Assembly: GCA_963745835.1 (NCBI GenBank)
Contig: CAVUZH010000019.1
Location: forward strand, 320,001 to 384,000
DNA length: 64,000 nucleotides
Direction: 5' to 3'
Origin: an uncultured delta proteobacterium
GTDB taxonomy: Bacteria > Desulfobacterota > Binatia > UBA9968
The position numbers were made by a program, and so were the translations under genes. This document shows, piece after piece, positions 38,847-44,983 of the stretch (the first letter of the stretch is position 1; each line of letters opens with the position of its first letter). A model generated the notes under the pieces. It saw only the letters and a program-made list of their open reading frames with translations, searched no databases and was not told the DNA's origin.

Positions 38847-39368
38847 TTAACCGGCGAAATTCCACTTATTCTGCGCCTTTAGCAATAATTCCGCGACCTC
38901 GCGAACGGCGCCTCTACCGCCCGGTCTTTCGGTCACGTAATCGACGGATCGGAATAATTCCTCCCACCCATCCTTTACCGTTACCGCCAAACCAACGCGG
39001 CGGAGGATCTCTGCATCACCGATATCATCGCCGATGTAAGCAATCTGAGTCTCCGCCAAACCTGATTGGCGCCGGATCTCTCCATACGTAGTGGCTTTAT
39101 TTTGAACTCCCTGGCGCATGATCCGAAGGCCCAGTTCTTTGGCTCGATACCGCACGGCTTTGGAATTTCGCGCGGTGATAAGACCGACCTCAATACTTGC
39201 CCGCATGAGCAAAACGATGCCTTGCCCATCGCGCACGTCGAAGTGCTTTGTTTCCACTCCTCGGTCGTCGAGGATGATGCGGCCATCGGTCAACACCCCA
39301 TCGACATCGAGCAGAAGCAATTTTATAGCTCTGGCCTTGTTTCGGACCGCTGTAGAAATGCGCTTCAC
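38847..39368 (-). CDS. kdsC: KDO 8-phosphate phosphatase
   Basis: LDVDGVLTDG, FDVRDG, YIGDD..D, GGRGAVRE. Confidence 0.95.
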   Translation of the reverse strand: MKRISTAVRNKARAIKLLLLDVDGVLTDGRIILDDRGVETKHFDVRDGQGIVLLMRASIEVGLITARNSKAVRYRAKELGLRIMRQGVQNKATTYGEIRRQSGLAETQIAYIGDDIGDAEILRRVGLAVTVKDGWEELFRSVDYVTERPGGRGAVREVAELLLKAQNKWNFAG

Positions 39369-39377
39369 GGATGGGAG

Positions 39378-40346
39378 TTAAAGGCCAGCTTTTAGGAGAT
39401 CGTGGAGATGAATCACACCCGAGGGTTTGCCATCCTCATCGAGAACAAACAGGCTGGTGATGCTGTGTTGCTCCATCAGTGCGACCGCTTCCGCGGCGAG
39501 AGAATCAGCCGCTATGTTCTTGGCATTCCGGGTCATCAGCTGTTTGGCATTGTATCTGAAGATATCACCTTTGGATTCCAAGCCACGTCGCAAGTCGCCG
39601 TCGGTGATGACTCCCGTCAGTTTCCCCGCTGCATCGACAACCCCGGTGATCCCGAGCCGCTTCGAAGTGATCTCGAAAAGAGCGTCCTTGATGGGCGTGT
39701 CTTCGCGAATCAGAGGAAGTTTATCGCCACGATGCATGAGATCTTCGACGCGCAAGAAAAGCCGTCTGCCTAAAATTCCTCCGGGGTGCCGCATCGCGAA
39801 ATCTTCTTGATTGAATCCTTTCGTCTCGAGAAGTACCACCGCTAACGCGTCGCCCATGGCCAGAGTTGCCGTGGTGCTCGCAGTGGGGGCCAAACCTAGC
39901 GGGCACGCTTCTTCTCTCACGCTGACATCGAGAACCACGTCCGCTGCCTTTGCCAGGGTTGACTCTGGATTCCCGGTCATGACGATCATCTTCAGAGCGT
40001 GCCGCTTGAAGTGGGGGATGATCTTGAGGATTTCTTCAGTTTCTCCGCTATTGGAAACGGCAAGAATGACGTCGCCCTTCATGACCATGCCTAAATCACC
40101 GTGAAGCGCATCGCTTGAATGGAGAAAAAAGGAAGGCGTACCCGTGCTCGCCAAGGTTGCCGCAATCTTGCGACAAATCAGACCCGATTTACCCATCCCG
40201 GTGACAACCACCTTGCCGTTGCATTCGCCGAGCAACTTGATGGTCTTGCAAAAATTTTCATCAAGACGATCCAGCAGAGATCGAAGTCCCTCAATCTCGA
40301 TGTTCAACACCTCTCTGGCACGGGCCAAAATGGCTTTTTGGTTCAC
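39378..40346 (-). CDS. kdsD: Arabinose-5-phosphate isomerase (KpsF/GutQ)
   Basis: GMGKSG, HGDLG, EACPLGLAPT, HPGG, CBS pair. Confidence 0.96.
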   Translation of the reverse strand: MNQKAILARAREVLNIEIEGLRSLLDRLDENFCKTIKLLGECNGKVVVTGMGKSGLICRKIAATLASTGTPSFFLHSSDALHGDLGMVMKGDVILAVSNSGETEEILKIIPHFKRHALKMIVMTGNPESTLAKAADVVLDVSVREEACPLGLAPTASTTATLAMGDALAVVLLETKGFNQEDFAMRHPGGILGRRLFLRVEDLMHRGDKLPLIREDTPIKDALFEITSKRLGITGVVDAAGKLTGVITDGDLRRGLESKGDIFRYNAKQLMTRNAKNIAADSLAAEAVALMEQHSITSLFVLDEDGKPSGVIHLHDLLKAGL

Positions 40347-41173
40347 GAAACCGAACTACCTTTCACCATCTCGTCGATCTGTTTCACGGCTCCGATTAAT
40401 TTTTCAAAATCCTTCAATTGCAAAGAGTTCGGGCCGTCACTCAAGGCCTGATCCGGGTTTTCATGAACCTCCATGAATAATGCGTCGACCCCGACAGCCA
40501 CCGCCGCGCGTGCCAATGCTGGGATATACTTGCGCTCGCCGCCGGACGCGTGACCGAGTCCGCCAGGTAGCTGCAAGCTGTGAGTGGCGTCAAAGATCAC
40601 TGGATATCCGAGCTCGCGCATCCACACCAGCGAGCGCATGTCAGAAACAAGATTGTTATACCCGAACGAAACTCCGCGCTCTGTCAACAACACCCGATCG
40701 TTCCCGGTTGAAAGTATCTTATCGACAACATTGGCGATATCCCAAGGCGCAAGAAATTGGCCTTTTTTGACGTTAACGACTTTGCCGGAATTGGCCACAG
40801 CGACGACGAAGTCGGTCTGCCGACAAAGAAACGCCGGAATCTGCAAAACGTCGGCGATCTCCTGAACCGCGGCTACCTGCGCCGATTCATGAACATCGGT
40901 TAAGACCGGCACACCGATTTTGCGTTTAACCTCAGCGAGAATCTCCAATCCACGCTCCAGTCCCGGTCCACGAAATGAACTCGCCGAAGATCGGTTCGCC
41001 TTGTCATAAGAAGACTTAAAAATGTAAGGAACACCTGCGCGATCGGCCGCTTCTTTCAGCAACGAGGCGTGCCGTAACGCGGATTCCTGGCTTTCGATGA
41101 CACAGGGCCCCGCGATGACCGCCAGTGGTCGACCGGCGCCGATTTTAAAATTGCCTATCTCAACCAGTTTCAT
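40343..41173 (-). CDS. kdsA: KDO 8-phosphate synthase
   Basis: AGPCVIE, KANRS, IPAFLCRQTD, KKGQF, DATHS. Confidence 0.97.
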   Translation of the reverse strand: MKLVEIGNFKIGAGRPLAVIAGPCVIESQESALRHASLLKEAADRAGVPYIFKSSYDKANRSSASSFRGPGLERGLEILAEVKRKIGVPVLTDVHESAQVAAVQEIADVLQIPAFLCRQTDFVVAVANSGKVVNVKKGQFLAPWDIANVVDKILSTGNDRVLLTERGVSFGYNNLVSDMRSLVWMRELGYPVIFDATHSLQLPGGLGHASGGERKYIPALARAAVAVGVDALFMEVHENPDQALSDGPNSLQLKDFEKLIGAVKQIDEMVKGSSVS

Positions 41174-41202: not shown

Positions 41203-42858
<1,656 letters not shown>

Positions 42859-42989
42859 TCAGTTGGCACAATCTCTAGATAATGCTCCGCTCTTCAATCT
42901 TCAGAAATCGACTCCTACGGCCTCTACGGCCTCTCGCCAGCTCGGCAACATGAAGATGAACTTCAATTCTACAGGTGCCGATGTTCCTT

Positions 42990-43763
42990 TCACTTGGTAC
43001 GGCCTCTTAGGTAACGCTCCGCTTTCTGCAAATCTTCAGGAGTATCCACTTCTACCGATCTCTCGTCGACCTCCGCGACATGAATCCGGTAACCATATGC
43101 CAACGCCCGCAGTTGTTCCAAACTTTCGATCTGCTCCAGTGCGGTCGGACGCAAGCGGGCAAACTTCAGTAGAAACTCACGCTGGTAGACGTACAAGCCC
43201 AGGTGGCGGTTGCCCCATAATCGCCTTTTTACACTAGGCCGAACTTTGCCGCCGTTCAGATCGATTCCATCGTTGCGCGAGTAAGGAATCGGTGCCCGGG
43301 AAAAATACAGAGCGAATCCTTTGCGGTCGATTACGACTTTGACAATATTCGGGTTGAGCCACTCGTCCTGATCGAAGATTGCGGTGCAAACGGTGCCCAT
43401 CGGAATTGATCGGTCACGCTTCATCGGCCGAACCGCGCGGGTGATCGTTTCTGCCTGAATAAACGGCAAATCACCCTGAACATTGACCAGGATATCCGCC
43501 CTGACTTTGCGCGCCACCTCCGCGAGCCGATCCGTTCCACTCGGATGGTCCCTGGCAGTCATAACGACTTCGCCGCCGAAATTTCTTACGGTTTCTTCGA
43601 TGCGCAGATCATCGGTGGCTACCACAACTCGGTCCAATTCTTTAGCGCGTGAGGTGCTTTCGTAAACATGCTGGATCATCGGCTTGCCGCCGATCGAGGC
43701 TAACGGCTTTCCCGGAAGACGGGTGGAACCATAGCGCGCCGGGATAATCGCCACTACTGACAT
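42990..43763 (-). CDS. kdsB: CMP-KDO synthetase
   Basis: IPARYGSTRLPGKPL, SGTDR, NVQGD, LYFSR, ESLEQLR. Confidence 0.97.
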   Translation of the reverse strand: MSVVAIIPARYGSTRLPGKPLASIGGKPMIQHVYESTSRAKELDRVVVATDDLRIEETVRNFGGEVVMTARDHPSGTDRLAEVARKVRADILVNVQGDLPFIQAETITRAVRPMKRDRSIPMGTVCTAIFDQDEWLNPNIVKVVIDRKGFALYFSRAPIPYSRNDGIDLNGGKVRPSVKRRLWGNRHLGLYVYQREFLLKFARLRPTALEQIESLEQLRALAYGYRIHVAEVDERSVEVDTPEDLQKAERYLRGRTK

Positions 43764-43826
43764 AAACGTGCGCTTCAGAAGTGTGATGACTGCGTGAGAA
43801 AGGTCAAAGTTGCGTTCTCGTCGTCG

Positions 43827-43868
43827 AAATAAAAAACCGCAATGGCTTTCAGCGAAAGCACATCACGG
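43827..43868 (-). terminator. Leader intrinsic terminator (attenuator) of the kdsB-pyrG operon
   Basis: CCGUGAUG-U-GCUUUC-GCU-GAAAGC-CAUUGCGG followed by UUUUUUAUUU, starting 7 nt after the -10 box. Confidence 0.75.
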
Positions 43869-43874
43869 AATTCA

Positions 43875-43903
43875 ATAATACGCCCAGGCTAAAAGGGTGT
43901 CAA
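43875..43903 (-). promoter_or_regulatory. Near-consensus sigma70 promoter of kdsB-pyrG
   Basis: TTGACA-17 bp-TATTAT. Confidence 0.8.
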
Positions 43904-44047
43904 TGTGATTTGCTGTAGCCGAACCATCCTACCTCGCGTCCGGCATCGAGTCGCACCAGTGGCGATCATGGTAAGCGCGGCAATCCAACTTGACTAATCA
44001 ATGTCCTCCTATGATAGGAGTGATCGGGAAGTAGGAGGACGAGCGGG

Positions 44048-44983
44048 ATGGCGGACTTTATAAAAATCGATGCGGGATTTGCGACCATCGGACAGGGCGC
44101 CGGCCCCATGATGGTGACCTGGAAGGCCGGATTATTTAAAAAGCACGGCCTCGATGTTGACAAACCCCGTATCATGGGCGGCGCCAAAGGAGTTGTCCGC
44201 GGCCTAACCATCGGGGAAATTCAGTTCGGCAATTTGGCAGCGCCGGCGCCGTTGAGATCTAATGTCAAAGGCGAAACTGATTTGATCTTTTTGACCGGCG
44301 GCATAAATCAACAATTCGTCATGGCCCGCCCGGGAATAACTGGCCGCGAACAGCTCACCGGCAAAAAGATAGGCTTCGTCGGCGATGGCGGTCTGAATGA
44401 CGCGCTGGTGAGTTTCATTATCGAAAAATTGGCAGCCGCGGGCATAAAAGGCATAGAGAAAGAACCTGTTCCCGCCGGCGGCGATCAGCAAATCGCATCG
44501 CTCATCAGCCAAAAATGCGATGCCATAGTCATCACTCCGCCAGAATCGATTGACGCCCAGCGAAAAGGCTGTAAGTACCTAGTCGATTTCGCCGAGCATG
44601 GCCTTAATTATGCGCTTGGCGGGATTGCCGCGCGCCGCGATTATGTCGAGAAAAATCCCGAGATCACAAGAAAGTTTATCAAAGCATATGTTGAGGGGAT
44701 GCACCGCTACCGGACAGACCGCGATTTTACGGTGAACGTCCAGGCTGAATATAGCGGCATTGCGGATCGCACGATAGCGGAAGAAACCTACGATCTCACC
44801 CGCCCGGGTATGCCGCCGGTTCCTTATCCGGTTGTTGCTTCGCTGCAAGTTTTGCTTGATTTTATGTCCAAGGAAGTTCCTGAGGCGAAGAATGTCGATG
44901 CGCGGCGCTTTGTCGACGATCATTTCATTCGAGAGCTTGAGGAAAACGGATTTATTGCTGCGCTTGCCGGTTCCAAGAAGTGA
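44048..44983 (+). CDS. NMT1/SsuA-like substrate-binding protein, no obvious signal peptide
   Basis: GLFKKHGL, LTGKKIG, RKFIKAYVEG, FVDDHFIRELE. Confidence 0.82.
   Translation: MADFIKIDAGFATIGQGAGPMMVTWKAGLFKKHGLDVDKPRIMGGAKGVVRGLTIGEIQFGNLAAPAPLRSNVKGETDLIFLTGGINQQFVMARPGITGREQLTGKKIGFVGDGGLNDALVSFIIEKLAAAGIKGIEKEPVPAGGDQQIASLISQKCDAIVITPPESIDAQRKGCKYLVDFAEHGLNYALGGIAARRDYVEKNPEITRKFIKAYVEGMHRYRTDRDFTVNVQAEYSGIADRTIAEETYDLTRPGMPPVPYPVVASLQVLLDFMSKEVPEAKNVDARRFVDDHFIRELEENGFIAALAGSKK

Follow-up and report, generated by a model that had tools for sequence, protein, structure and literature searches.

Regulation "without repressors", whereby RNA polymerase itself senses the nucleotide pools, is classically exemplified by the pyrimidine genes, and two logics of this kind are known, namely, start-site switching that acts on translation and start slippage that acts on a terminator. 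Transcripts of the Bacillus pyrG gene start with GGGC, and the extra G residues added at low CTP pair with the 5' arm of the leader terminator and act as an antiterminator; similar leaders are found also in streptococci. The enteric pyrC and pyrD genes, as described in the part of the source that we draw on, start at a C located 6-7 nt past the -10 hexamer when CTP/GTP is high and at a G when it is low; the two additional C of the longer transcript close a 5' hairpin (PMC6524683). Bacterial transcription starts are distributed over positions 6-9 after the -10 hexamer in proportions of 8, 55, 29 and 7%, respectively, with the mode at 7 bp; the start itself is preferentially a purine preceded by a pyrimidine, and the levels of the initiating NTPs shift the choice (PMC5730371, in the portion consulted). 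For intrinsic terminators, the part of a preprint available to us identifies GC(U)7RU as the form of strong termination sites, with bases -11/-10 being the last paired bases of the stem, and reports that changing these two bases while preserving the stem nearly abolishes termination (10.64898/2026.05.29.728758).

Here we analyze the leader of a kdsB-pyrG locus in which features of both logics seem to be combined. The window, that is, the whole 64,000-nt stretch of DNA under analysis, comes from contig CAVUZH010000019.1 of the Binatia genome UBA9968 (GCA_963745835.1); window coordinates are used and the minus strand is read throughout (Table 1). The first-pass annotation of this DNA invoked enteric pyrC and Bacillus pyrG as points of reference, and its accounts of both agree with the literature as far as the cited portions go.

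Table 1. Features of the kdsB-pyrG leader and of the genes downstream (window coordinates)
Feature	Position	Strand	Remarks
-35 hexamer TTGACA	43898..43903	-	TTGAC kept in 77/77 aligned relatives
-10 hexamer TATTAT	43875..43880	-	17-nt spacer from -35; TA...T kept in 77/77 aligned relatives
TGAATT, six bases from -10 to hairpin	43869..43874	-	purine-free at position 6
CCGU	C7 43868, C8 43867, G9 43866, U10 43865	-	candidate alternative starts; invariant in 77/77
Terminator hairpin, 32 nt	43837..43868	-	outer 8 pairs, bulged U, inner 6 pairs, loop GCU
U tract UUUUUUAUUU	43827..43836	-	adjoins 3' end of stem
Remaining leader to kdsB ATG	43764..43826	-	without conserved structure; fold of full leader similar to shuffles (z about 0)
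kdsB (CMP-KDO synthetase, 257 aa)	42990..43763	-	NF003952, E 3.4e-93
pyrG (CTP synthase, 548 aa)	41203..42849	-	NF003792, E 1.2e-257
kdsA, kdsD, kdsC (rest of presumed operon)	38847..41173	-	

The promoter scan covered 1.5 kb and detected three promoter-like sites, compared with 1.1 +/- 1.2 in shuffled sequences; the promoter at the hairpin matches the consensus in 11 of the 12 positions, and the other two sites in 9 of the 12. The hairpin, CCGUGAUG-U-GCUUUC-GCU-GAAAGC-CAUUGCGG, contains two G-U among its eight outer pairs and was missed by the terminator scan of the same tool because of the bulge. It consists of a stable G+C-closed stem directly adjoined by a U-rich tract, the arrangement by which intrinsic terminators are recognized (with a tract of 7-9 nt). 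The promoter, its spacing, the hairpin and the U tract all lie on the minus strand where the first-pass annotation had placed them; the distance to the kdsB ATG (43763), given there as about 65 nt, is 63 nt counted from the U tract and 73 nt from the end of the hairpin. The starts at C7, C8 and G9 are predictions from the sequence. On the plus strand, no U tract follows the hairpin, and the upstream neighbor, a sulfonate-binding-protein-like gene that begins at 44048, is on the opposite strand; therefore the hairpin cannot terminate transcription of an upstream gene. Rfam covariance models produced no matches with E values up to 10 in the interval 43600-44150 on either strand. The leader does not resemble a riboswitch: there is no ligand-binding core but only a single hairpin, the interior and length of which vary between families. 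The window hairpin does not include a Shine-Dalgarno sequence.

The genes kdsB-pyrG-kdsA-kdsD-kdsC presumably form a single operon, judging from their tight spacing on the same strand, with kdsB rather than pyrG in the first position. The kdsB-pyrG spacer in the window is 143 nt long and contains a weak promoter-like site. Across the loci compared, pyrG comes after kdsB in 29 of 30, the remaining locus ending at a contig edge, and the gene upstream of the leader varies from genus to genus.

The placement of the hairpin immediately next to the promoter is exceptional in this genome. When the entire 7.28-Mb genome was scanned for sites in which a hairpin followed by a T run starts 4-9 nt after a promoter-like pair of hexamers, only 7 of the 2669 terminator-like hairpins were found to adjoin a promoter-like site, and only at the kdsB-pyrG element does the promoter score 11/12, the other six being at 9/12. 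A covariance model that combines the promoter and the hairpin has one match in the same genome. Thus, neither search of the whole genome recovered a convincing second copy, and from this single occurrence it follows that the layout is not a general device of this organism.

Sequences from RNA libraries give a weak hint as to the 5' end. All 24 sequencing runs considered consist of assembled contigs, a type of record that cannot show transcript ends; parts of the stretch are present in 17 RNA-library runs, and RNA libraries may contain DNA. Two contigs from different studies that are 96-97% similar to the window (X3 and X4) extend from inside kdsB across the U tract into the 3' arm and stop within the hairpin loop, at 43851 and 43853, without loose ends; another contig (X2) stops at 43846. 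These stops of X3 and X4 are what a 5' end near 43866-43868 might look like after assembly. The contigs of four runs do not cover 43867-43920, a gap that is not counted as evidence, and none of the records in these four runs bridges the U tract with 31 letters on both sides.

The element is strongly conserved among the close relatives, here designated families f1 and f2. KdsB was detected in 40 of 41 related genomes, and among the 27 gene-anchored loci of f1 and f2, three are lost to contig ends and the remaining 24 all have the element upstream of kdsB. Searching the order with the covariance model yielded one match each in 81 of the 123 genomes, including 75/89 in f1 and 5/5 in f2, with no matches among the 28 genomes of f3; in the class sample, 8/8 genomes of f1, 2/2 of f2 and the source genome itself were recovered but none of the 140 genomes from 17 other families, and the other 150 genomes of the phylum sample likewise gave no match. 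The tallies of KdsB, covariance-model and class-pattern matches include four unpublished genomes (G012, G018, G068 and G089), which were left out of the alignment of 77 leaders, one per genome. A degenerate pattern run against public records yielded 68 matches, of which 64 are titled as Candidatus Binatia or Deltaproteobacteria metagenome-assembled genomes; the other four look like chance hits, in line with the roughly 3.5 expected by our own estimate.

The alignment reveals a start region under tight constraint. The first-pass annotation had singled out the six-base distance from the -10 hexamer to CCG as a feature that relatives should share, and it holds in all 77 aligned leaders of f1 and f2, as does the CGG that precedes the U tract, although the kinship of these relatives means that invariance across 77 leaders overstates the independent support. 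The sequence Y-C-C-G occupies positions 6-9 after the -10 hexamer in the window and in the 77 relatives. All 77 have A at position 3 and, at position 6, either T (73 leaders) or C (four); no leader of the 77 has a purine at positions 6-8, so that G9 is the first purine of the usual start window. A run of G at the start region, in turn, is absent from all 77. Four T columns of the U tract are invariant, and 75 of the 77 leaders have 6-8 T within the first 8 nt. The leader between the U tract and kdsB is a different matter, with conservation that stops at the genus level.

The stem that the same annotation expected to covary does so. In the 24 gene-anchored leaders, 94.6% of the cells of the named structure are paired, and shifting the 3' partner by 1-3 columns reduces this value to 38.7-50.5%; both one-sided and two-sided changes occur, the latter in 4 of the 14 stem pairs. 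The closing pairs C-G, C-G and G-C are invariant in these leaders, whereas four of the five non-closing outer-stem pairs vary, and so do the inner stem and the loop. The substitutions are of the type UG/UA (20 and 4 cases) and GU/AU/GC (12, 7 and 5 cases). U10 is invariant, its partner being G or A.

Beyond these families, the element can be traced across Candidatus Binatia by its ends rather than by its interior. Among the pyrG-anchored loci in other families, 8 of 23 (L182, L183, L187, L189, L190, L193, L194 and L201, the last with a long-range closure read by eye) have a terminator-like hairpin between a TTGACA/TATAxx promoter and kdsB. All eight hairpins start with CCGU and end with RCGG followed by 5-8 T, around interiors unrelated to that of the window. 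The hairpin starts six bases after the -10 hexamer in five of the eight; the other three, all from family f79, have a distance of seven bases and a CCCG run that lies one base further from the best -10. In several families, the G is preceded by three or four C, as in GAAACC-CCGUGG.

In a class sample of 401 genomes, the strict pattern TATA-N8-CCGTR-N14-44-RCGG-TTTTT matched 49 genomes, compared with four for the pattern read backward. The matches include 21 of 63 genomes in f1, 4/4 in f2, 2/3 in f5, 8/19 in f83, 3/3 in f85, 5/5 in f87, 3/3 in f88 and 3/7 in f90; one of them, in genome G074, corresponds to a weak hairpin at a different genomic location. Leaders escape this pattern when they have TATTAT or TATGAT, when CGGC or CGGA precedes the T run, when the hairpin is long, or when the start is offset as in f79. 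Furthermore, the pattern demands CCGTR and RCGG and hence demonstrates the diversity of the interiors, not the invariance of the closure, for which the gene-anchored set of 24 plus eight leaders is the unbiased support. In the 16 loci that were fetched from f5, f85, f87, f88 and f90, kdsB is immediately 3' of the element in every case, and the hairpins are 23-49 nt long with energies from -17.4 to -32.6 kcal/mol. An in-frame kdsB ATG lies 0-1 nt past the U run in 14 of these 16 loci, so that the whole leader is hairpin-U6-8-AUG; with the ATG abutting the U tract, an added translational effect is possible in these families.

Thus, distant families retain a TATA-type -10, six intervening bases, CCGU...RCGG and U5-8 around unrelated interiors, which argues against an aptamer or a protein-binding site in the body of the hairpin and points to constraint on the stem closure and on the start region, to judge from the sequence comparison. 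In families f3, f4 and f82, the operon is present but the element is not. A 5' hairpin with CCG(U) at the same distance but no U tract is seen in some members of f81, f83 (genus g166), f7 and f6. In four such variants (L185, L186, L197 and L202), folds from C7 and G9 differ by 0.3-1.5 kcal/mol; occlusion of the pyrC type was considered for them and rejected, the start-codon region showing no clear change. Outside the class, three genomes of the phylum sample matched (G748, G260 and G176), with weak hairpins or without kdsB, and the sole good hairpin among them precedes only a 23-codon frame; on inspection, all three look like chance matches. The reverse-pattern control matched about 15 genomes of that sample.

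A comparison of the folding energies of transcripts from C7 and G9, which the first-pass annotation had proposed, brings out the role that the first two bases could play. From C7, the window hairpin folds with -16.8 kcal/mol (z -4.35; none of 200 shuffles as stable), and from G9 with -12.2 kcal/mol, which is still a stable hairpin, with the 3' GG left unpaired before the U tract. The mean energies in the 77 leaders are -16.1, -14.2 and -12.2 kcal/mol for C7, C8 and G9, respectively, the outliers of the range coming from one or two rows in which the regular expression shortened the hairpin. The shift from C7 to G9 costs about 4 kcal/mol in this set and leaves two unpaired bases ahead of the U tract in 75 of the 77 leaders; in the 16 fetched leaders of f5, f85, f87, f88 and f90, the difference is 4.0 kcal/mol and the GG is unpaired in every one. 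By the general rules of intrinsic termination, a start at G9 would be expected to lose termination. The comparisons between relatives and the folding energies all agree with the interpretation given in the first-pass annotation.

Taken as a whole, this is very probably a conserved, functional leader terminator that controls kdsB-pyrG. Given the layout of the element, its single occurrence in the genome and its conservation throughout the class, we infer start sites whose choice depends on the nucleotide pools and sets termination; that the element is, as the first-pass annotation proposed, a CTP-sensing attenuator at the 5' end of the operon, which works through the choice between C7 and G9 with RNA polymerase as the sensor, we consider to have an even chance of being correct. 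Under this model, two pyrimidines, C7 and C8, would occupy the favored start positions of a sigma-70-type promoter, with G9, the sole nearby purine, two bases on. When CTP is plentiful, initiation would occur at C7 (pppC-C), the first two bases would pair with the GG before the U tract and complete a canonical intrinsic terminator, and most transcripts would be only about 40 nt long. With CTP low relative to GTP and UTP, the start would shift to G9 (pppG-U), and the hairpin would still form but end two bases before the U tract; it would therefore fall short of the upstream edge of the RNA-DNA hybrid, allowing the polymerase to continue into kdsB and pyrG. Termination is accordingly predicted to decrease from C7 (high) through C8 (intermediate) to G9 (low). 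Under the rule given in the accessible part of the preprint (10.64898/2026.05.29.728758), the C7 stem would reach the hybrid edge, with GG-U7-AU in most families and GG-U6-AU in the window.

The proposed read-through start would need GTP and then UTP, and the terminating start two CTP, a requirement that would also account for the invariant U10 with its variable partner. CTP synthase takes UTP as its substrate, with GTP as an activator and CTP as an inhibitor, and the direction of the proposed regulation is right for CTP homeostasis. In the commonest form of the element, where the entire 5' leader is hairpin-U7-AUG, termination would fall inside the start codon; the two start bases would, in addition, determine the extent of unpaired RNA, including the freed GG, that the ribosome encounters before the AUG. 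The full version of the proposal, to which we assign somewhat less than an even chance, is that the polymerase picks pppCC or pppGU and thereby builds or truncates a terminator at +1; that CTP is read against GTP and UTP and sets CTP synthase without a protein, a ligand-binding RNA or an antiterminator; that the device is ancient in Candidatus Binatia; and that in its hairpin-U7-AUG form two bases set both termination and the unpaired RNA before the AUG.

Alternative structures and coding potential were considered as well. A conserved alternative (antiterminator) fold was not found in the leader. A downstream antiterminator, GUCAUCACAC (about 43789-43780), could pair with the 5' arm but is located 3' of the terminator and has lost this ability in genus-level relatives. 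A leader peptide within the hairpin (AUG UGC UUU CGC UGA) was also rejected, its stop being not conserved and a ribosome site being absent; nor is the candidate AUG invariant, with U in 74 of the 77 leaders and ACG or GUG in some.

A terminator so placed need not sense anything. A constitutive leader terminator, ending a fixed fraction of transcripts whatever the nucleotide pools, would damp a very strong promoter or make an RNA of ~40 nt, its 5' hairpin would also shield the read-through mRNA from 5'-end-dependent decay, and CC...GG would be kept because terminators need a G-rich stem base. The hairpin with its U tract is a good terminator by itself, without a conserved antiterminator fold; the families that lack the U tract still hold a 5' hairpin; and, in the portions of the sources cited, the greA leader of Escherichia coli ends two-thirds of transcripts regardless of growth phase (PMC2836576) and the -11/-10 stem bases are constrained in sequence (10.64898/2026.05.29.728758). 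Along these lines, the invariance of the closing GG may instead reflect a requirement of intrinsic termination as such (G at -11, either C or G at -10), in which case the 5' CC could be a passive partner of GG. The stem of the window ends in GG, not GC, and the sequence reads GG-U6-A-U; in 14 of the 16 leaders from other families, it reads GG-U6-8-AUG, in agreement with the pause form GS(N)7RY. A purely constitutive role does not account, however, for a stem the first base of which always coincides with the modal start, positions 6-8 being pyrimidines and position 9 being G in all 77 leaders, for a U10 that is invariant while its partner is G or A, for the presence of GG rather than the reported optimum GC, or for the restriction of the device to a single copy per genome, located at the CTP synthase operon. 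On balance, we regard this explanation as unlikely.

The remaining explanations retain regulation but assign it to something other than the choice of the start. A protein or small RNA that acts at the stem base or the U tract (for example, a PyrR-like protein, Hfq or NusA/NusG) would make the start site irrelevant; within f1, the 5' arm CCGUGAUGCGCUUUC is conserved beyond the need for pairing, and the terminator of the rimP leader, which has no antiterminator in the part of the report cited, has been proposed to act via a protein (PMC2965389). Nevertheless, only the 4-bp closure and the U tract are constant, whereas interior, loop and length change between families, which leaves very little surface for specific recognition, and no candidate regulator gene is linked to the locus, so that factor-dependent attenuation appears distinctly unlikely. 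Polymerase might also sense CTP in another way, through reiterative transcription on the C run or through CTP-limited initiation or escape. Runs of three or four C in several families, together with the precedent of Bacillus pyrG, which senses CTP through GGG slippage, favor the former, but slippage typically occurs at three or more identical bases whereas f1 and f2 have no more than CC, with T before it in 73 of the 77 leaders, and an added 5' C would not obviously break the terminator; a CTP-limited promoter, for its part, would lower pyrG expression at low CTP, which is the wrong direction. Both versions are thus quite improbable. Finally, the inverted repeat overlaps +1 to +32, a typical position for an operator, and terminator-like palindromes have been discussed as dual-use elements (PMC2965389, in the same portion), but a repressor acting on DNA at the start site is highly improbable: two of the eight outer pairs are G-U, that is, mismatches in DNA, the variation follows RNA rules (UG/UA; GU/AU/GC), the interiors of 23-49 nt or more leave the spacing of half-sites unfixed, and the U tract is conserved.

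If the attenuator model is correct, the two logics known for pyrimidine genes would be joined here in their simplest form, with a terminator that is complete or not depending on the first base of the transcript. Such a device needs only about 75 bp of DNA and would be a compact synthetic part for CTP sensing. The element also offers a naturally occurring case in which to test the reported requirement that the last two stem positions of a terminator be paired, and it illustrates that the logic of a conserved regulatory RNA can be recovered by comparative analysis from a wholly uncultured lineage. Full-text literature searches did not turn up any example in which the choice of the start site is directly coupled to an intrinsic terminator; a "pyrG motif" mentioned only in the supplement of one paper (PMC11109978) and a Pseudomonas study that describes 3'-end formation in the pyrG-kdsA leader, with no mechanism given, could bear on priority.

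Among the described systems, short terminated RNAs from a promoter-proximal hairpin with a U tract are known from the leaders of greA (GraL) and rimP, which, in the parts of the reports drawn on, have no visible alternative structure, similar to the element described here (PMC2836576, PMC2965389); their hairpins, as far as these parts describe them, do not begin at the start site, and closure is not tied to the choice between a pyrimidine and a purine start. That a two-base difference at the 5' end can give RNAs distinct functions is illustrated by the 3G and 1G RNAs of HIV-1 (PMC12172438, as covered in the section consulted), a conceptual parallel only, given that this is a eukaryotic virus transcribed by Pol II, without a terminator or sensing of nucleotide pools.

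The closest comparisons are with the two pyrimidine systems. With enteric pyrC and pyrD, in the portion of the source cited, the element would share a sigma-70 promoter with a C start 6-7 nt past the -10 hexamer followed by a G two bases on, two extra 5' C that complete a hairpin and CTP/GTP as the signal (PMC6524683). The hairpin of pyrC and pyrD hides the ribosome-binding site and acts on translation, whereas here the U tract adjoins the hairpin and the ATG is 63 nt off, so that the output would be termination; the genes differ too, being those for dihydroorotase and dihydroorotate dehydrogenase in the enteric case and those for CTP synthase and the KDO pathway here, where the switching is itself a prediction. 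With pyrG of Bacillus subtilis, the element has in common a leader terminator before the gene for CTP synthase and the proposed sensing of CTP within the first few nucleotides. However, kdsB lies between leader and pyrG in the window, the start region is UUCCGU, and the terminator begins at +1; with the hairpin starting at the first transcribed bases, there is no upstream RNA to form an antiterminator. Low CTP would shorten the RNA by two bases here, whereas in Bacillus it lengthens the transcript. Thus, the element belongs to neither the pyrC nor the Bacillus pyrG type: its proposed sensing is pyrC-like, and its proposed output is like that of Bacillus pyrG.

By sequence comparison, what travels with kdsB is the promoter-hairpin unit alone. 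The divergent sulfonate-binding-protein-like gene that adjoins the leader is found beside it in the genus and two other genera (loci L001-L007 and L019) and nowhere else. The distance of the element from kdsB also varies: it lies approximately 200 nt farther than normal from this gene in L007 (genome G008) and approximately 280 nt farther in L026 (genome G027), which suggests insertions between the terminator and kdsB. The leader of the Binatia-labelled records is shared by nine public records (L086, L093, L101, L109, L111, L112, L114, L122 and L128) with titles that name Limnocylindrales, Verrucomicrobiia, Acidiferrales or Syntrophobacter(aceae); the labels or bins of these nine may be wrong.

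Between the -10 element and the hairpin, all 77 aligned leaders have A as the third base past the -10, and 73 of the 77 have A as the fourth (alignment A2, columns 43-44); the readings proposed here do not account for these two A bases. The hairpin itself contains a short frame, AUG UGC UUU CGC UGA, in which the AUG and the stop both lack conservation among the aligned leaders. Downstream, a gap of about 140 nt separates the kdsB stop from the pyrG ATG in the source genome and the two relatives closest to it (L001-L003); it is just about 20 nt in the same-genus loci L004-L006. A promoter-like site in this gap could allow pyrG to be transcribed, in part, independently of the leader.

Features of the kdsB-pyrG region (window positions)
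Feature	Positions	Strand	Remark
Short frame	43864-43850	minus	within hairpin
A bases 3 and 4 after the -10	43872-43871		
kdsB stop to pyrG ATG	42850-42989	minus	
Weak promoter-like site GTGAAA-16-TAGAAT, 9/12	42993-42966	minus	in kdsB-pyrG gap
Sulfonate-binding-protein-like gene	44048-44983	plus	divergent; adjoins leader

Several families carry variants of the start region and hairpin. In family f79 (L182, L190 and L194), the leader has CCCG in place of CCG; the hairpin begins at position 8 and the G is at position 10, counted from the best-spaced -10 (TATATA, 17-nt spacer). In L186 and L197 (family f81) and L202 (f7), CCGUAG six bases past the -10 opens a 5' hairpin with CGG closure that is not followed by a U tract; in L197, GGAG lies immediately 3' of the stem. 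The leader of L185 (family f83, genus g166), also without a U tract, may be a translational variant: its 5' end, GUGAUCGCG, pairs with CGCGAUCAU, within the conserved kdsB codons for V-A-I-I-P, in a structure that encloses the GUG start codon.

A further arrangement is found in families f5, f85, f87, f88 and f90 (L203-L218), where 14 of 16 leaders have 0-1 nt between the U tract and the in-frame kdsB ATG downstream of it, so that the 5' UTR consists of the hairpin and U6-8 alone and contains no Shine-Dalgarno sequence. With the ATG abutting the U tract, termination would fall within the kdsB start codon, given that the GG-U7-AU of these leaders agrees with the pause-like motif described for strong terminators in a recent preprint (10.64898/2026.05.29.728758).
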